From Minisyncoccota bacterium (GTDB taxonomy: Bacteria; Patescibacteriota; Minisyncoccia; Phycocordibacterales; PALSA-1337): a stretch of DNA of 64,000 nt. Every line of letters begins with the position of its first letter. The stretch's first letter is position 1. A program made the translations under genes and the position numbers. The stretch spans positions 13,128 to 77,127 of the forward strand of contig JBAYIX010000003.1 of NCBI GenBank assembly GCA_041665385.1, in the 5' to 3' direction. A model generated the notes under the pieces. That model did no database searches. It saw only the letters and a program-made list of their open reading frames with translations, and had not been told where the DNA came from. Positions 11,415 through 63,927 of the stretch are shown here, in pieces.

Positions 11415-11571
11415 GATTGCCCCTAATTATACTCGAAAAGTCATAGAAATACGCATGAAAACTGTGCATAACTCGGAGAGTTCCTTCCTACGCCAAGGCT
11501 TCGGAAGGCAAGTCAATCTCACAGAACACGCACTGTTTGCAAAAAAGTCTTAAATATGCGATATTAGTCCC

Positions 11572-12771: not shown

Positions 12772-13470
12772 ATGAAACCTACTACAGAATCTTTCGAAAA
12801 ACGTATTGGTGTGAAGTTTGATGACGCAAAGCTGTTGCGTTCTGCTGTGACGCATCGTTCCTACCTGAATGAAAATAAAAAAGTAGATCTGGAACACAAT
12901 GAACGTCTGGAATTTTTGGGAGATGCTGTTCTCGAACTGGTCGTGACTAGTTATCTATTTCGCAAATATACCAAGAAGGCCGAGGGCGAGCTCACGGCAT
13001 TTCGTTCTGCTCTGGTGAATACTGTGAGTCTGACCAAAGTCGCAGAACATATCGGTCTCAATGAATTTCTACTCTTGTCGCGCGGTGAAGCCAAGGATAT
13101 CGGACGTGCACGTTCGGTAATATTGGCAAATGCCGTGGAGGCTGTCATAGGAGCGATATATCTCGACCAGGGTTACAATGCTGCGGCAAACTTTATTGCG
13201 GATCATCTGTTGAATACTATAGACATAGAAGAGATAATAAAGAACAAGACCTGGATAGATGCCAAGAGCCGTTTCCAGGAAAAAGCCCAAGAAAAAGCAG
13301 GTAAGACTCCTTCCTACAAGACGCTCAAAGAGGCCGGACCTGACCATGACAAAGTTTTTACTCTGGGGGTATTTTTGGGAGATGTGCAAGTGGCCACAGG
13401 TAGTGGCCCATCCAAGCAGGAAGCGGAACAAAAAGCCGCGGAAAAGGCACTAGAAGTCAAAGGTTGGTAA
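12772..13470 (+). CDS. rnc: ribonuclease III
   Basis: ERLEFLGDAVLELVV signature plus a C-terminal dsRBD. Confidence 0.9.
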   Translation: MKPTTESFEKRIGVKFDDAKLLRSAVTHRSYLNENKKVDLEHNERLEFLGDAVLELVVTSYLFRKYTKKAEGELTAFRSALVNTVSLTKVAEHIGLNEFLLLSRGEAKDIGRARSVILANAVEAVIGAIYLDQGYNAAANFIADHLLNTIDIEEIIKNKTWIDAKSRFQEKAQEKAGKTPSYKTLKEAGPDHDKVFTLGVFLGDVQVATGSGPSKQEAEQKAAEKALEVKGW

Positions 13471-17099: not shown

Positions 17100-17311
17100 A
17101 AATGAGGGCATAATAGGAACCTATCATTTGACGTTCCGTCAAGTTTATGAAAATAAAATAGGAAGGCTTGCATGGACGTTATAATACAGTGAGCAGGAGC
17201 TAACCCCCCTGCAACAAATACCATGGCTGAACCAGTAAAGAAGCCGGGAGCACCGGCTGAGCCTACACAGGCTTAGTTCTATTGAAGAGACGCTCCAAAA
17301 GAGCGTTTTTT
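17100..17311 (+). ncRNA. candidate small RNA ending in an intrinsic terminator
   Basis: Three short GC hairpins (GCAGG..CCTGC, GCCGG-GAGCA-CCGGC, AGCCT-ACAC-AGGCT), then GACGCTC-CAAAA-GAGCGT + T6 at 17289-17311. No ORF. The 5' end is undefined. Confidence 0.25.
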
Positions 17312-17349
17312 CATTATTAGGGCCTGTATATGTGATGCCCACCTTTTTT

Positions 17350-17457
17350 CCCAGCAAGGTTGTGCGGGCTTTTTCCTTCATTTGAAATATTTGTGCAGGG
17401 TCCGAGTATTGTAAACACTTCACAAATGAAGGAAAAAGCCCGCACAACCTTGCTGGG
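17350..17457. repeat. perfect 35-bp inverted repeat with a 38-nt loop carrying the core TGTGCAGGGTC
   Basis: Arms 17350-17384 and 17423-17457 are exact reverse complements. The loop contains ttTGTGCAGGGTCcgag. Both Met-ORFs across the region (17145..17498 -, 17360..17566 +) are mirror artifacts of it. Confidence 0.85.
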
Positions 17458-17827
17458 AGGTGAACGTAGCTCAATAAACATTTTCTTCCATACAGCACAA
17501 CAACCCGCTTTGGCGGGCTGTGTGCATAATGGTTACTCGCAATCGGAGATAGATCGCAAATTTTAAGTGGTGTCCGTTTCCGACGCTAGGCGTGGAATTT
17601 TTTTTGGACCCTATATTTTATGAGTTAAGGATCATCTCCATCATTGGTAACCTGTATTAAGGATATTATTTTTGGTCGCAAAAGTCAAAGGAAAAAGGGG
17701 CCTTTTTCTGGGGTTTAGCTGTGCACAAACTGTGCATAAGTTCACTTTTTCTGTGGACAGAGATTTATCACACAAAACGATGCACTGTGCAATACTTTAC
17801 AAGCATATCCTTGGCTTCCGGAATCTT

Positions 17828-20104: not shown

Positions 20105-20230
20105 ATTATAGCATGCACGCTCTTATTCTTACTCAAAAGCAGGGCTCTAGTGAGCCACGGTATTGGATGTCAAATGGTGGCTCAGTGACAACGTAGAATG
20201 AACGAAAAATAAGAGCGTGCGTGCTATAAT
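20105..20230. repeat. 23-bp inverted repeat (one U-G compensated position) enclosing a nested 8-bp hairpin, in the leader of the FAD oxidase gene
   Basis: attatagcaTgcacgctcttatt at 20105-20127 versus the reverse complement of 20208-20230 (c/t difference gives a U-G pair in RNA). Inner TGAGCCAC/GTGGCTCA at 20151-58 / 20177-84. Confidence 0.7.
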
Positions 20231-23341: not shown

Positions 23342-24571
23342 TTAGTTTGTATCCTTGATAGATAGTGCGGGGATGACTGCTGTGAGGCAGATCACTCCTA
23401 TGATGACGAACAAGTACTGGTTTGTTGTGAACATTAGACCAACAATAGTGATGAGAGGAGCGATGAAAAGGGAAACTGGCCTGGTGATACGGAATACACC
23501 CAGAGCGGCGGCATCGCGTGGTGAAACCGTTTTGAAAAAGTAAGACTCTATCATGACTTCGACCGAAGCCGCTCCGATACGGGTGATGAATAGCACTAGA
23601 GCCCAGAGAGCGACATTTGGAATATTTATGAAAGCGAGGAATATGGTAGCAATGCCCATGATGACGAAACCAAGAGCCATTATCTCTTTTTCGCCGTATT
23701 TTTCGTCCGCTATTTTACCCAAGGGGTATTGGATCAGAGGGAATGGTAGAAGCATGATAGTGAGTATGAGTCCGATATCGAACCAGCTGAAGCCCATGGT
23801 CTTATTCAAGTATATGGGGCTATACACAACCATCCAGGAATAAAAGACTTGAAGTATGATGTTCGCACTAAAAAGTTTGACCCAGTTTTTGTTGCCACCG
23901 ATATGCTTTACCAGCTGGACAGGGGAGAGATGGATATAGTTCGGGTCCTTGAAGCGGGGGAAGTTGCGGTATATGAGGTAGAGGAATGGTAGGAGCATGA
24001 GGAGTGCCGCAAAGAAAGTATTCCTATAGTTACCTGTACTACCTATGAGCATACTGCCGATGAGGGGGGCGATGAGCCATGAGGCATTGAGGGAGGCATT
24101 GTAGAGTCCGCGAACTTTACCGATGTGGACACTATCTGTATATACCTCTAGGAAGATGTCGAGAGTAAGACCAATGAGGGCGGACACTGCGAGCTGAACC
24201 ATAAAGAATGTCGCAATGACGGTGGGTGATGCGGAAAAGAACAAGCCTATGAAGAGTATTATCTGAATGCAGATAAGGACAACTGAGGTTTTGTAGTTGC
24301 CGTATCTACGTATGAAAGATGGTGCGATGAGGAAGCCGAGTATGGAAACGGCTCCGCCTACCATATAGATGAGGCTGACTATTCTCTCGCTGCCAAATTC
24401 GCTTAGGAAGCTGGAGTTGGAATACATAGGGAGGACTATGTGGAGCGCATATATGAAACCGATAAGAGCTATGGTGTAAATGACGTTACTCTTGGGGAGA
24501 TCACGAGAAGAACTGATTTGCATATGGGGTATTATAACATGCAGTTTGTTTTCGGAACCTGGGCATAGCAC
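23342..24571 (-). CDS. MFS transporter
   Basis: About 12 TM helices. Signature loop GRYGNYK-like between TM2 and TM3. Confidence 0.75.
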   Translation of the reverse strand: MLCPGSENKLHVIIPHMQISSSRDLPKSNVIYTIALIGFIYALHIVLPMYSNSSFLSEFGSERIVSLIYMVGGAVSILGFLIAPSFIRRYGNYKTSVVLICIQIILFIGLFFSASPTVIATFFMVQLAVSALIGLTLDIFLEVYTDSVHIGKVRGLYNASLNASWLIAPLIGSMLIGSTGNYRNTFFAALLMLLPFLYLIYRNFPRFKDPNYIHLSPVQLVKHIGGNKNWVKLFSANIILQVFYSWMVVYSPIYLNKTMGFSWFDIGLILTIMLLPFPLIQYPLGKIADEKYGEKEIMALGFVIMGIATIFLAFINIPNVALWALVLFITRIGAASVEVMIESYFFKTVSPRDAAALGVFRITRPVSLFIAPLITIVGLMFTTNQYLFVIIGVICLTAVIPALSIKDTN

Positions 24572-24747
24572 ACAGCAAATCCTCTCTTTTGAGAAGTGTT
24601 TACGGTCCGATAGCTTTGCACTGCTATTCCAAAAGAGAGGATTTGCTGTGTGCTATGCCCAGGTTCCGCGCGAGTAAAAAAAGATGTTAATATTTGTGAA
24701 CAAATTGCAGTTGCATTTTACCTCAAATGTGGTATGATTATGGCACC

Positions 24748-26802: not shown

Positions 26803-27063
26803 TTCGTTCTTTAGTTCGTTAGTCACAGGGCACTCTTAATGGGTGCCTTTTTTCATGAAAAATTCCAATGTAACCACGACGAAACTCCAGCAATTTTCTT
26901 CGATCTCGTCGAGGACTGTCTGAGAGAGTATAAATTTCTGGACAAAATGGGAACCATTGCATGCCCTCGTGACCATTTTGTCCTGAAATTTAACGAGCGA
27001 GTTCCGCAGACGAGTGAGAAGAAGATTGCTGGGGTTGAGGTCGTAATTCCGTAAGCTTGTGAA

Positions 27064-31187: not shown

Positions 31188-31355
31188 TTTCGACCCTGCC
31201 GCACTCTCTTCCCTCGACTGCGGATTCACTCGTCACATCTCGGCATTTCCACAAACTGTGCCCTGCAAGGATTCGGTCACAGTTTGGGAAATGCATCGAG
31301 ATCTGACTTCGTGAAGAGTCCTCGCCTTCGGGAAGAGAGTGCGGCAGGGTCGAAA
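31188..31355. repeat. perfect 26-bp inverted repeat flanking a 116-nt structured spacer in the secG-groES divergent region
   Basis: tttcgaccctgccgcactctcttccc at 31188-31213 versus the exact reverse complement at 31330-31355. Inner near-palindrome ccacaaactgtg ... cacagtttggg. The arms contain GCACTC / GAGTGC hexamers. Confidence 0.8.
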
Positions 31356-56502: not shown

Positions 56503-56675
56503 CCACCTGCACAAGCAGTATCGGGACACGCTCAAAATCCGCAACTGCTCATAGAACGCCTGTTGCGGATTTTGAGCTAGTTTCGTCCTCGCCCTATGGT
56601 GACAATGCAGATACACTGTATCCGGCTCGGACTCCAAATGTCCCTCTACTGCATGTGCAGGCGGGGGTGGTCGTT
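56503..56675. repeat. nested inverted repeats downstream of uvrA (outer roughly 17-bp arms, inner perfect 16-bp hairpin)
   Basis: Inner GCTCAAAATCCGCAAC (56530-45) / GTTGCGGATTTTGAGC (56562-77). Outer ccgcccccacctgcaca ... tgtgcaggcgggggtgg. Contains TGTGCAGG. Confidence 0.6.
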
Positions 56676-60168: not shown

Positions 60169-60175
60169 AATAGAA

Positions 60176-60279
60176 AACTGGGGCACACACATGTTTTTTC
60201 ATGAAAAGTGAGAAGATGTGCAGGGTCAACGTTCGAGGCAGTTCTACTTTTCATAAAAAAACATGTGTGTGCCCCAGTT
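60176..60279. repeat. 34-bp inverted repeat (one mismatch) with a 36-nt loop carrying TGTGCAGGGTC, 10 nt upstream of tRNA-Ala
   Basis: Arms 60176-60209 / 60246-60279. The loop gagaagaTGTGCAGGGTCaacgttcgagg shares an 11-mer with the loop of the 17350 hairpin. Confidence 0.8.
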
Positions 60280-60288
60280 TTCTCTCGC

Positions 60289-60359
60289 GGGCTCATAGTA
60301 AAATGGTATTATACGGCATTCGCATTGCCGAGGTCCGGGTCCGATTCCCGGTGAGTCCA
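60289..60359 (+). tRNA. tRNA-Ala (anticodon CGC)
   Basis: Acceptor GGGCTCA/TGAGTCC with G3:U70. Anticodon stem CGGCA/TGCCG, loop TTCGCAT. T-arm CCGGG-TCCGATT-CCCGG. Discriminator A. 71 nt. Confidence 0.8.
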
Positions 60360-60438
60360 CAAAAATAAGGAGCACACGCAGTGTGCGACTATATTTTTGT
60401 GGATGCCGGCGCCGTAGCGCCGGCGCCACATTTTTGTG
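60360..60438 (+). repeat. tRNA-Ala 3' trailer repeat (copy L) containing a GC-hairpin terminator
   Basis: caaaaataaggagcacacgcagtgtgcgactatatttttgtggat-GCCGGCGC-CGTA-GCGCCGGC-gccacaTTTTTgtg. Near-identical inverted copy at 61730-61801. Confidence 0.8.
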
Positions 60439-60690
60439 TCCCACGCTACGCTCTGGATCTTCGAGATGCCGGCGCCACAGCTTCGCTCATATCGGTGCTA
60501 CACGGTGTGTGTAATAAAAAAAGCAGCACAATCTTGTGCTGCTCCGGATTTCTCTTTTTTCTTTTTCTACTTCCTCAACGTGAGCCGGAATCGTGAGCGT
60601 GTTTTTGAGTCACGCATGCGATTCCTCACATCACCGTCGGCGATGGCGACGTTTGGTTTCGTTGGATCGTGTGACACTGAGGTGTTAAGA

Positions 60691-60975
60691 ATGAATGCTA
60701 GACCAGCAATATCACCGACGCCCAGAGTCTTTGTGCTCGTTATGATCGTTTTCATCAGTATTCTTACTATTTGGGGTCTGCATATATGCTACGATTATTT
60801 ATGTGCATTGTCAAACAAAAAACCATCTCATGGATGGTTTTTTGTTTGCTTACTTGGTGCAACCGCACTGAGCACATTTCTCACTCTTCTCGTGTTCGTG
60901 CCCGCAGTCAGGACAAGTTCTTTTTTCATCCATGGTATTATTTTACAAGTTAATGCTCATAATACGACCATGTAA
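60691..60975 (+). CDS. small membrane protein (94 aa)
   Basis: In-frame ATG at 60691 within ORF 60436..60975. Two to three TM helices. Lies between the trailer repeats. Confidence 0.3.
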   Translation: MNARPAISPTPRVFVLVMIVFISILTIWGLHICYDYLCALSNKKPSHGWFFVCLLGATALSTFLTLLVFVPAVRTSSFFIHGIILQVNAHNTTM

Positions 60976-61167
60976 GTATAATAGTTTTTGTGCCTACTTA
61001 CCATGTTAGTACCTGTGGAGGAGGGGGTTTGGTGCAGGGGAGTTCGTTATGAATAGATATTTAAAGCCGGTTATTCACAAAGGAACCAAATTTCCTTGAC
61101 AGAGGTACTGAAAAAAGCATATACTATCACTGTATCAATACGGGAAAGCACTTCTTAAGGTTCGTCC

Positions 61168-61674
61168 TTAAGCGGTGCTTTTCTTTTTTATATACTCGAT
61201 CTTCTCCCTGAGGTCATCTACATACTGGATCTTCTCAAGGGCTGAGTGAGTAAGTAGGCCAGAACAAAATTTTCTGTTAGTACTCAGCACAATCTCCAGT
61301 TTGTTATTTGCATACAGATGTTCTACAAGAGAATAGAAATCGCCATCATTTGAAACAATTATAGCTTTGTCGTAGTCGTTCCACTCGATCATTGCTCGTA
61401 ATACAATGTCGGCATCGACATTTCCTTTAATCTTACCATCAACATCTGAGATAGTAGGTTTGAATCTAATAATAAAACCGGATTCCTGAAGTTTGTCATA
61501 CAAACTTTGGTTTAAAGCAACAAAACCTATAAACATGTATGCTTTTTCGACATTATATTTTTCGCACAAGTATGTGTTAAATTTCTTGTAGTCAATTTTC
61601 CAGCCAAGCTCTTGAACGCCAAGATTTAGGTTTTGGCTGTCAATAAAAGCGTAATTTTTCATGATTGAATTCAT
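61168..61674 (-). CDS. NYN-domain (LabA-like, PIN-fold) protein
   Basis: IDSQNL ... GNVDADIVLRAM ... IVSNDGDF acidic motifs of the NYN domain. 168 aa. Confidence 0.75.
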   Translation of the reverse strand: MNSIMKNYAFIDSQNLNLGVQELGWKIDYKKFNTYLCEKYNVEKAYMFIGFVALNQSLYDKLQESGFIIRFKPTISDVDGKIKGNVDADIVLRAMIEWNDYDKAIIVSNDGDFYSLVEHLYANNKLEIVLSTNRKFCSGLLTHSALEKIQYVDDLREKIEYIKKKSTA

Positions 61675-61729
61675 TGGCGAATATTGTCTCAGATATATAA
61701 GCCAAATACAACTATTTATCGATTATTTT

Positions 61730-61801
61730 TGTGGCGCCGGCGCTACGGCGCCGGCATCTCACAAAAATATAGTCGCACACTGCGTGTGCTCGTTATTTTT
61801 G
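61730..61801 (-). repeat. tRNA-Ala 3' trailer repeat (copy R, inverted relative to copy L)
   Basis: The reverse complement matches 60360-60430 with two differences (G to C, one extra A). Confidence 0.8.
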
Positions 61802-61874
61802 TGGACCCGAGGAGATTCGAACTCCTGACCTCCTCATTGCAAATGAGGCGCTCTACCAACTAAGCTACGGGCCC
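61802..61874 (-). tRNA. tRNA-Ala (anticodon UGC)
   Basis: GGGCCCGTAGCTTAGTTGGTAGAGCGCCTCATTTGCAATGAGGAGGTCAGGAGTTCGAATCTCCTCGGGTCCA. G3:U70. Anticodon loop TTTGCAA. Confidence 0.85.
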
Positions 61875-61989
61875 ATATTTTTGGGTCTTAGTAGCATAAC
61901 TGAAAACAGCATTTTATTCAACGTTATTGAGAAAAGATAAAAAATATCGTAAGCTATTCAAATCCACGATATTGGGAATATGATAGAAA

Positions 61990-62060
61990 CGGGCTGTAGT
62001 ATAGTGGTAGTATACATCCATGGGGTGGATGCGGTCCGGGTTCGATTCCCGGCAGCCCGA
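61990..62060 (+). tRNA. tRNA-Pro (anticodon GGG)
   Basis: C1:G72 and A73 (Pro identity). Anticodon stem CATCC/GGATG, loop ATGGGGT. T-arm CCGGG-TTCGATT-CCCGG. The D-arm needs two G-U pairs. Confidence 0.65.
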
Positions 62061-62069
62061 CTTCGTTAG

Positions 62070-62142
62070 GGGCCATTAGCTCATTTGGTAGAGCGCACCC
62101 ATGGCATGGGTGAGGTGACCGGTTCGATCCCGGTATGGTCCA
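62070..62142 (+). tRNA. tRNA-Ala (anticodon GGC)
   Basis: GGGCCAT ... G3:U70. D-arm GCTC-ATTTGGTA-GAGC. Anticodon stem CACCC/GGGTG, loop ATGGCAT. T-arm ACCGG-TTCGATC-CCGGT. Confidence 0.8.
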
Positions 62143-62280
62143 CAGATTTCATTTGTTAAGAAAGATCGTCCGTTTACTTGCCAAAGTCTCGTGCCCACTA
62201 TTTCCACCATGGTATTTTGAATTACATCAAAAGCATTCCTATAGCAAACTATTGAATAAAAAAATGATATAATTATTTGC

Positions 62281-63927
62281 ATGAATGAAGAATTCAATAG
62301 AAAAAATACTGTCTCTGATAAGAATGTTTTTCCAGCTCCGGTTATACTAGGTAAAGTAAATACAAACAGATTCTATTTTTACTCAATAATTATAACAGTG
62401 ATTGTGGTTGTTGTAATAGGTGGGTTGTATTTCTACTCATATAGTTCAAAAATAAATGAACAATCAATTACTTTAGAGCATAAACAGAAACTAAATAGAG
62501 TTCCCGACGATTTGGTTTTTTTGCGGGGATTTTGGAACACGAGACAAGAATGGCCGATAAATCAAAGAGTAAGATTTTCAGGTTACCAAGAAAGTCCCTT
62601 AACTAGATTGCGACAGGCATATTGTGAACGGGTAGGTTATGAATACGCTGATTTTGGTGGAGACTGTTTTGTCTATCAATATTATAATTCATACAAAACC
62701 TATTACGATAATTCGGCGGAGTTCACGGTATTCTATCCTTCACTTTGGCAAATAGATTTACAACCTTTGAATTATGGTTTTATAATTGACCCAAAAGTCT
62801 CACTCAGGCGTCAAGGGGCTTCCTGTGCCCTTGTATACGGTCTTGTTGATGAAAATAAACTTTTATCAGCTAGTAACATCTCAACAAGTACGGTAAGTTT
62901 CGGTTATCAAGCATCTGGAAACGTTGCTTCTGAAACAAAAAGATTAAGTAAAATTATTTTATCTTTTGACAGAGAACTCAGTAATGAAGAAAAAGCGGCT
63001 GGTTACACTAACTCAAAAATTGTTGCCATACCACATTTCCCATATAGTTCAAGCCCATTCGGTTTCCTCATAACAAGTGGAGATAAGCAGCCGCTAGTTG
63101 AAGCGTGTGCCGAAGAATTTGACGGCATCCTCGGTGGCAGATCAATATATTATCCATCTGCAAGGTTATCGAACCAATCAAACGGTATTCTGTCGATTCA
63201 AGATGTGTCGTCGTGGTTTGAGAGAGAAGCCGATATTCCGCAAAAAAATATGCTTCTATTTGATAATTTCTCAACAGGGAAAGAGGAGTCAATCGTGTCA
63301 GCAACCTTCTCGAATATTCAAAGAATCTCTGACCCCTTTTTGAGCGGAGGAAAAATATTTTATACGGATGGATCAGCAACTAATACAATAATTAAAACTG
63401 TTGATATTTTAAACGGTGAAAATATGATAGTACCATTATCATATGATGCAACAAAACCAATTCATTCATTCTTCATTAGGGGTGACATATTGTATTACCT
63501 TTCAGGAACATTTTGTAAAGAATATCGTAATAAATGCAAAGATATGAATCTTTTTAGTTACAATATAAAATCAGGAATAAGTGAGAATTTAGCAGGTGGA
63601 ATAATAGCAAGAGACATTGATGGGTTCAGTGCGACGGGAGACTCGCTTATTCTAAGCTGGAGCGATGGCGACGCCGGATGTGCATGGGGTTCATACCAAT
63701 CTTTTACTCTCACAACTAAGGTGGTCAAAGACCTTGGTTCGTATTCATATTGCGAGGGCGATACAGAAGGTACATATACTAAATTCAAAAAACTTGTCGC
63801 TGATTCTGACAGTTTCAGTTATCTAGTCGTCAAAAGCGGTAAAATATTTTCTCCGAGCGGGACGGATACCTATTCTGGGAGAATTTATATTAGAGTCAAT
63901 ACGACAGAATATCCAAAGGATCGGTAA
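62281..63927 (+). CDS. hypothetical membrane-anchored protein (548 aa)
   Basis: N-terminal TM (YFYSIIITVIVVVVIGGLYFY), then a large ectodomain with no recognised motifs. Confidence 0.45.
   Translation: MNEEFNRKNTVSDKNVFPAPVILGKVNTNRFYFYSIIITVIVVVVIGGLYFYSYSSKINEQSITLEHKQKLNRVPDDLVFLRGFWNTRQEWPINQRVRFSGYQESPLTRLRQAYCERVGYEYADFGGDCFVYQYYNSYKTYYDNSAEFTVFYPSLWQIDLQPLNYGFIIDPKVSLRRQGASCALVYGLVDENKLLSASNISTSTVSFGYQASGNVASETKRLSKIILSFDRELSNEEKAAGYTNSKIVAIPHFPYSSSPFGFLITSGDKQPLVEACAEEFDGILGGRSIYYPSARLSNQSNGILSIQDVSSWFEREADIPQKNMLLFDNFSTGKEESIVSATFSNIQRISDPFLSGGKIFYTDGSATNTIIKTVDILNGENMIVPLSYDATKPIHSFFIRGDILYYLSGTFCKEYRNKCKDMNLFSYNIKSGISENLAGGIIARDIDGFSATGDSLILSWSDGDAGCAWGSYQSFTLTTKVVKDLGSYSYCEGDTEGTYTKFKKLVADSDSFSYLVVKSGKIFSPSGTDTYSGRIYIRVNTTEYPKDR

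Follow-up and report, generated by a model that had tools for sequence, protein, structure and literature searches.

Long palindromes with a conserved, oriented loop in the intergenic DNA of a Patescibacteria lineage: a probable selfish foldback repeat family

The stretch of DNA analysed here (64 kb in its full length, hereafter the window) comes from an uncultivated Patescibacteria (Paceibacteria) lineage and corresponds to two contigs of the MEGAHIT assembly ENA ERZ27249449, with an overlap of 140 nt between them. Between the genes for a PAP2/DedA protein and enolase it carries a hairpin, H1, the arms of which are exact reverse complements at 36 of 36 positions and enclose a loop of 38 nt containing ttTGTGCAGGGTCcgag. 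An earlier note on this DNA, made from the letters alone, had described a perfect inverted repeat of 35 bp with a 38-nt loop at this place, a description that was confirmed and extended by one pair. By our own arithmetic, a perfect inverted repeat of 36 bp with a spacer below 150 nt is expected about 2e-15 times per 64 kb. The genome is not AT-rich as had been assumed, since its GC content was 37-48% over 2-kb windows and about 45% overall. Folded as single-stranded DNA, H1 reached -46.4 kcal/mol (z = -12.9 compared to dinucleotide shuffles). The two open reading frames that cross it (17145..17498 and 17360..17566), which the earlier note had called spurious, were not called as genes in the source annotation, and part of the first one was absent from a related genome (locus L030). 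As described below, H1 is one of at least five copies of a non-coding palindromic ('foldback') repeat of roughly 105-120 bp.

Five copies (H1 to H5) were found in about 88 kb of one genome, three of them in the window and two upstream of it on the same ENA contig (L010). Their lengths ranged from 106 to 119 bp, with arms of 34-41 bp and loops of 36-38 nt. H2, which has longer arms than H1, had been overlooked before; it folded with a z of -15.4. The second hairpin of the earlier note, placed at 60176-60279 with 34-bp arms, proved to be real (H3, fold z = -11.3), whereas its limits had to be moved to 60172-60283, with 38-bp arms and one C.A mismatch. When read in one orientation, the loops of the copies had in common the core xAATAGtTGTGCAaaG...GTAAACACTTC, in which GTGCA was the sole word present in all five, TGTGCA being found in four of the five. 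The 11-mer that had been taken as the core of the family had two exact matches in the window (17392 and 60217; about 0.03 expected), and both lay in hairpin loops, as had been noticed; within the family it was common to H1 and H3 alone. Pairwise identity between loops was 58-76%, compared to 52 +/- 5% for shuffled loops, and that between arms was 47-71%, compared to 47 +/- 6% for shuffled arms. Most arms were laid out as a variable outer end followed by GGCACACA, GCTTTTT and ATTTG, the outermost 5-10 bp being unrelated between copies (arm ends TCCCAG, CGGAAC, AGAAAA, CCGCAA and CCCCAG). The copies share ancestry in loops and arms.

A covariance model (R1) was built from the inner 20 bp and the loop of H1, H2, H3 and H5, with H4 held out. 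R1 recovered H4 with 56.9 bits (E 1.4e-8) and in the orientation that had been predicted. H1 scored 96.1 bits in forward and 41.8 bits in reverse orientation, for H2 the minus strand gave 85.7 bits and the plus strand 35.7, and H3 reached 74.5 bits; forward scores were thus far above reverse ones and the loop is therefore oriented. With filters switched off, the three members in the window scored 74-96 bits and the next match was a generic hairpin of 24.9 bits. Over 199 kb (the window plus its relatives) R1 gave no match beyond the known copies. No decayed copies were detected in a mismatch-tolerant hairpin scan, and all copies found scored at least 31 in an ungapped scan. The five copies and the recovery of the held-out one support the view, put forward in the earlier note, of a palindromic family with a conserved loop and with arms that diverge while remaining complementary to each other. 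A possible sixth and distant member was found in a Candidatus Taylorbacteria metagenome-assembled genome (L003, 6583-6729), with perfect 30-bp arms and an 87-nt loop that starts with tgctAAATAGtgaaaaTGTGCAAA; among 38 loci, the pattern AAATAG-N1-8-TGTGCAAA was present only in this locus and in H5. L003 is also the lone, distant locus matched by the PAP2 protein in GTDB genomes, at 48% amino acid identity; together with homologues that bear the names Patescibacteria or Paceibacterota, this match of a flanking protein assigns the window to Patescibacteria/Paceibacteria.

Despite the divergence between copies, pairing within each of them was almost complete. Over the five copies, 186 of the 188 arm pairs were of the Watson-Crick type (216 of 218 when L003 was included), and the two exceptions, C.A in H3 and T.G in H5, were both of the transition type. 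In an alignment of six arms, 40 of the 46 columns contained at least two different Watson-Crick pair types. Copies differed by 30-50%, yet each of them was 97-100% self-complementary. Given this pairing and the variation in pair type, the copies are old relative to one another yet internally perfect. In an RNA helix under selection many G.U pairs would be expected, and in a MITE (a miniature transposable element with inverted repeats) of such age the two arms should have decayed independently. The pattern points to concerted evolution of both arms at the DNA level, and the combination of a conserved, oriented loop with strongly diverged arms and near-perfect pairing inside each copy is unusual.

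Table 1. Coordinates, geometry and neighbourhood of the five hairpins and of the 11-mer in the H1 loop. Positions are those of the window unless a locus is named; loop sequences are given with all copies in one orientation.
Feature	Position	Orientation	Arms	Loop	Loop sequence	Neighbouring genes	Arrangement
H1	17349..17458	+ (forward loop orientation)	left 17349-17384, right 17423-17458	17385-17422	aaatatttGTGCAgggtccgagtattGTAAACACTTCa	PAP2/DedA gene and enolase	convergent
H2	24553..24668	- (loop core on minus strand)	24553-24591 and 24630-24668, 39/39 complementary	24592-24629, 38 nt	gaatagcaGTGCAaagctatcggaccGTAAACACTTCt (minus strand)	MFS and ABC transporter	divergent; 30 nt upstream of true MFS ATG 24523 (start placed by homologue alignment)
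H3	60172..60283	+	60172-60209 and 60246-60283, 37/38 (one C.A)	60210-60245, 36 nt	gagaagatGTGCAgggtcaacgttcgaggcagttct	ddl, then tRNA-Ala(cgc)	co-directional; starts 3 nt past the ddl stop, ends 5 nt before the tRNA
H4	L010 11384-11502 (window-equivalent about -570 to -690; 0.6 kb upstream)		41/41 bp	37 nt	agaagttGTGCAaagtccgggtaatcataatagctcg	DsbA-like and AddB/UvrD-like	convergent; H4 fills the spacer
H5	L010 17963-18068 (~7.2 kb upstream of the window)		34 bp, one T.G	38 nt	aaatagttGTGCAaatattgagtaaaGTAAACACTTCa	hypothetical gene, then gyrB	co-directional
11-mer TGTGCAGGGTC	17392..17402	+		within H1 loop; family-invariant part GTGCA 17394-17398

The presence or absence of the element among related genomes, a comparison raised in the earlier note, revealed empty orthologous sites in L030, L031 and L035. 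In L030, the PAP2-enolase spacer was 75% identical over its whole 800 nt and lacked about 170 nt that include H1, while its PAP2 protein was only 59% identical to that of the window. At the second site, no element was found between ddl and tRNA-Ala(cgc) in two independent relatives with Ddl proteins 75-76% identical: the ddl stop codon lies 4 nt before the tRNA gene in L031 and within it in L035/L036 (NCBI GCA_964555555.1). The same spacer of the window has about 127 extra nucleotides, among them the 112 nt of H3, and the C-terminus of Ddl is changed (QLAIRR* in the window compared to QLALLGL* in the relatives). Five related genomes reached through homologous proteins, one of them a sister with about 80% nucleotide identity, were covered over 8-16 kb each, and no family member was present there. 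Since related genomes are without the element at two orthologous sites, the copies appear to be lineage-specific insertions that postdate the split of the lineages.

Our preferred reading, to which we assign a probability of roughly 0.6, is that the family is a selfish foldback repeat of the Correia type whose arms are homogenised at the DNA level, and not a terminator. The element would have spread as a selfish, non-autonomous unit, and resident copies would keep their Watson-Crick arms through a DNA-level process that acts within the element, most likely either a polymerase that switches template from one arm to the other or a correction of the arms for which the hairpin serves as template. 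Such a process would copy a mutation of one arm to its partner, or erase it, and could also invert the spacer and lengthen the palindrome outward. Correction inside the element would account for a divergence of 30-50% between copies combined with 97-100% self-complementarity and hardly any G.T pairs within each of them, and template switching also fits the non-homologous outermost arm segments, the differing arm lengths and the two loop orientations. Template switching between the arms of inverted repeats is known to homogenise arms and to invert spacers (PMC8604942; PMC7202029). This quasipalindrome correction resembles what we propose in both effects; it is, however, documented as a mutational mechanism of short repeats and not as the upkeep of a 110-bp family, for which it is invoked here. 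A read-through transcript, for instance that of H3 between ddl and tRNA-Ala, would contain a perfect double-stranded RNA stem of 34-41 bp, a potential substrate of the RNase III encoded in the window, in parallel with the Correia elements of Neisseria.

Several points weigh against this reading. The main limit of the evidence is that it comes from only five copies, every one from a single species. Mobility is suggested only by empty sites between species with 59-76% protein identity; no presence/absence polymorphism was found within the species, and no direct target-site duplication was seen in the flanks of any of the five copies, the empty sites being too diverged for base-exact junctions. 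For the H1 site a deletion in the relative stays formally possible, while for the H3 site it is unlikely, because two relatives agree. A transposase, RAYT/IS200-like or other, had been proposed as something to look for in the genome; among the scanned or annotated open reading frames of the window and its flanks there was no transposase, recombinase, HUH/RAYT protein, TnpA or reverse transcriptase. If selection favoured a perfect duplex, the resulting pattern would be the same as with homogenisation. In addition, three of the five copies have an extra outer helix of 4-5 bp past a bulge of 3-5 nt, always on the 5' side when the loop is read forward, and this feature is unexplained. Finally, scans of external collections returned chance hits only. 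The pattern GTGCA-N13-GTAAACACTTC gave 11 hits in viral contigs, none of them in a hairpin, and AATA-N3-GTGCA-N13-GTAAACACTTC gave five hits in JGI metagenome contigs, all due to chance. This is a weak negative, since the pattern represents the loop subtype of H1, H2 and H5 and the JGI collection did not return the copies of the species itself. In collections of phages and plasmids, a BLAST search with H1 found nothing similar.

The alternative that survives best, although we consider it unlikely, is a functional cis-acting structured RNA, with selection for a long double-stranded RNA stem that would serve as a site of RNase III processing or insulation between the ddl mRNA and pre-tRNA-Ala, as a 3' stabiliser or as a roadblock. 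The complete covariation of the arms and the conserved, oriented loop would fit such a role, as would the position of H3 exactly between ddl and the tRNA gene and that of H4, which fills a convergent spacer; both non-Watson-Crick pairs are transitions that read as G.T on one strand. An RNase III with a double-stranded RNA-binding domain is encoded in the window (12772-13470), and for Correia elements both binding and cleavage by RNase III have been described, as well as effects on genes nearby (PMC2649163). However, 186 Watson-Crick pairs out of 188 with essentially no G.U are atypical for RNA-selected helices of this length, and the relatives manage without the element at the same sites. Orientation to transcription is not consistent either: the spacers are convergent in two cases, co-directional in two and divergent in one, the loops are forward in three copies and reverse in two with respect to the plus strand of the window, and the loop is sense to the flanking transcription in H3 and antisense in H5. 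H2 lies in a divergent spacer, upstream of the predicted MFS promoter and, by eye, directly upstream of a TGtTATAAT box. No Rfam family matched the elements; at the gathering threshold only five tRNAs were detected in the window, and under permissive settings the only matches, on both strands, were eukaryotic microRNA-precursor models with 14-49 bits against thresholds of 50-211.

A DNA site recognised as hairpin or cruciform by a protein of the host or of the element is a distinctly less probable explanation. The protein would recognise the loop, which the arms merely present, for recombination, replication restart, nucleoid organisation or uptake. The conserved information does reside in the loop, the arms needing only to pair, and perfect Watson-Crick arms fit a requirement at the DNA level. 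TGTGCA words are moreover 4.4-fold enriched in intergenic DNA (1.53 per kb compared to 0.35 per kb in coding DNA), which together with the recurring 10-mer CTGTGCATAA suggests a bound motif in this lineage. Against this, extrusion of a cruciform from duplex DNA is disfavoured by a spacer of 36-38 nt, conservation of the loop core is no more than moderate (58-76%), no candidate protein was identified, and close relatives are without the elements.

We also considered an idea that goes further than homogenisation and that we regard as rather doubtful, namely that these are self-templating foldback elements. What is inherited would be a single arm together with the oriented loop; synthesis primed by the hairpin, or with a switch of template, would then rebuild the other arm, either during transposition or continuously in place. 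Such elements could spread and persist in a reduced Patescibacteria genome without a dedicated transposase nearby, and their arms would stay perfect while diverging and growing into the flanks.

Ordinary intrinsic terminators, possibly bidirectional and unusually long, are a very improbable explanation, even if four of the five copies follow one or more genes and two occupy convergent spacers. Stems of 34-41 bp and loops of 36-38 nt are far outside the geometry of terminators (a short GC-rich stem, a loop of 3-8 nt and a T-run). Scans covering the H1 and H2 regions gave no terminator-like site that coincides with either hairpin, and from reading the flanks no T-run follows the stem of any copy, save one inside the outer arm of H3 itself. 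H2 is upstream of both its neighbour genes, the homologous loops indicate a repeat family and not independent terminators, and the L030 spacer carries short terminators of its own without an H element. The earlier statement that these are not ordinary terminators was thus borne out by stem and loop size, by the scans and by the flanks.

An assembly or amplification artefact (snap-back chimeras) has a negligible probability, because, although short-read contigs do break at the arms, as a Logan contig (L002) that ends inside the left arm of H1 does, the copies are internal to contigs of 70 kb and 122 kb, ENA and JGI assemblies of different samples agree exactly, and homologous loops occur at five separate loci. 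H3 and H4 were base-for-base identical in the JGI assembly (L037, L011; sample 3300037810), the single mismatch of H3 included, and the copies were stable, being identical across three independent samples. This identity, together with the break of the Logan contig, shows that the palindromes are genuine and that they also hinder short-read assembly.

Among known systems, the closest class is that of the palindromic intergenic repeats of about 100-150 bp, such as Correia (CREE/NEMIS) of Neisseria, ERIC/IRU and the Rickettsia RPE, with which the family shares its descriptive traits: size, non-coding nature, dispersal between genes, inverted repeats around a core, the ability to form hairpins and the absence of an internal transposase. 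Copies of those elements are closely alike and have imperfect arms, and Correia elements have a TA target duplication and an IHF site. In contrast, the present copies are 30-50% diverged and 97-100% self-complementary, the loop and not the termini is best conserved, and neither a duplication nor an IHF-like site was seen. Regarding the proposal of a mobile or protein-recognised palindromic element, mobile-type insertion was supported by the empty sites and the structured-RNA option was weakened, while the label MITE/REP/PATE fails: terminal repeats vary from copy to copy, target-site duplications are not apparent, and REPs differ in size and in head motif. Like MITEs, the family is small, non-coding and multi-copy, with terminal inverted repeats and empty sites in related genomes; unlike in MITEs, these repeats differ between copies and match no transposon, and no parent insertion sequence was present in the region examined. 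With the REP/BIME-RAYT system it has in common extragenic palindromes that are thought to act as single-stranded hairpins. REPs, however, are 20-40 nt long, have a GTAG/CGTC head and are clustered around a RAYT gene (PMC3733652), whereas the copies described here measure about 110 nt (106-119), with a 37-nt loop and arms of 34-41 bp, and no such head was recognised by inspection. As far as genes in the window and its flanks were scanned or annotated, no RAYT (Y1 HUH) gene was seen. No description of an interspersed repeat family for Patescibacteria, or of such a combination of loop and arms, was found in the searchable literature.

Other candidates were tried and rejected. Integron attC sites were discarded because no R-box consensus (RYYYAAC...GTTRRRY) was apparent at the ends by inspection, and because the copies are dispersed among housekeeping genes with no integrase in the annotated neighbours. 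A CRISPR or TIGR array does not match single, dispersed copies without boxes. Arms of a guide- or spacer-like kind, copied from or antisense to other sequence of the genome, were rejected as well, no shared word longer than 11-12 nt being found outside the family in the available genome. A promoter in the H1 loop was indicated by one 9/12 match on the reverse strand, which was not above shuffles and, by inspection, was unconserved in the other loops.

Genomes of Patescibacteria, or the candidate phyla radiation (CPR), are small and usually described as poor in mobile DNA. A 2026 survey reported that, among all phyla, those of the CPR are the densest in short perfect inverted repeats (PMC13155455). 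As our results show for one such genome, palindromes of 110 bp can be as frequent as about one per 18 kb. Should the whole genome follow this pattern, it would lend itself, as a naturally occurring example, to work on homogenisation by template switching and on the stability of palindromes where repair is reduced. On the practical side, these elements break short-read assemblies, create spurious mirror-image open reading frames and can alter gene ends, as with the C-terminus of Ddl.

Further palindromes were observed in the window, and the genome seems to be generally rich in long intergenic ones. The hairpins at 20105-20230 and 56503-56675 had been listed as shorter relatives of H1, but they scored only 11-14 bits with R1 on both strands, compared to 57-96 bits for true members, and in 56503-56675 the word TGTGCAGG sits in the stem and not in the loop. 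Together with 31188-31355, which gave similar scores (11-14 bits, both strands), they are separate rod-like structures and not relatives of the family. These three nested hairpins did not align with one another; direct alignment to the H copies was not part of the comparison. The hairpin at 31188-31355, upstream of groES in a divergent spacer, has a perfect outer stem of 26 bp (z -13.8), and that at 20105-20230, also in a divergent spacer, has a 26-bp stem at 92% (z -6.8). The best non-family match of R1 (24.9 bits) is a palindrome of 31 bp without spacer (81% complementary) at 26931-26992, where the ABC-transporter and RNase J genes converge; it may terminate transcription in both directions. 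In L031 (9885-9996, also in L032-L034), an AT-rich imperfect hairpin with 53-nt arms lies between uvrC and ddl, genes that overlap in the window; different Paceibacteria thus seem to hold different long palindromes.

The element at 56503-56675 (with L008 4195-4241) is a multi-branched structure of about 170 nt with an RNA fold of -98 kcal/mol (z -9.4). It contains the exact 140-nt overlap of the two ENA contigs (56522-56661), which represents a fork of the assembly graph. The 122-kb contig carries a different sequence upstream of 56522, with FtsZ and an S24 peptidase gene, and is without the left outer arm, while relatives support the order UvrA-UvrC-Ddl of the window at this fork. The fork could be due to a second repeat copy, a strain rearrangement or a chimeric join, and it hints that such palindromes may also seed rearrangements.

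Intergenic TGTGCA sites were found at 11462, 17520, 17730, 44632 and other positions. The 10-mer CTGTGCATAA was present at three of the four named here (17520 reads tgTGTGCATAA), and two of the four were conserved in L030. The word may be a lineage-specific promoter or operator motif.

The spacers that flank H1 contain additional conserved features. A micro-ORF at 17223-17276 encodes MAEPVKKPGAPAEPTQA, with the counterpart MAEPVKKPGQPAPEAPTQA in L030, and no gene is annotated there in the source record; a conserved stem-loop lies before it and a hairpin with a T-run (17289-17311) behind it, and a candidate promoter is located near 17166-17186. In the spacer between H1 and the enolase gene (about 17485-17775), nucleotide conservation compared to L030 exceeds the amino acid identity of the neighbour protein (59%). 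This region includes hairpins, gcacaacaacccgctttggcgggctgtgtgc among them, and has the appearance of a non-coding RNA, or of several, that the annotation lacks; no Rfam family matched at E<=10.

Downstream of H3, the relatives have a compact tRNA cluster, Ala-Ala-Pro-Ala-Pro-Val, of about 1 kb (L031 10989-12039; L035 3966-4948). In the window (60289-63927), this cluster is interrupted by a NYN-domain gene (61168-61674) and by a gene for a 548-amino-acid protein without Pfam match (62281-63927), and tRNA-Pro(ggg) is on the opposite strand relative to L031 and L035. The stretches 60355-60430 and 61730-61806 are an inverted duplicate of 77 nt, 97% identical, that provides tRNA-Ala(cgc) and tRNA-Ala(tgc) with their 3' trailers. 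L031 has retained the hairpin of the trailers, in which ccacaaaaata...tatttttgtgg encloses an inner stem, and shows compensatory changes in that stem.

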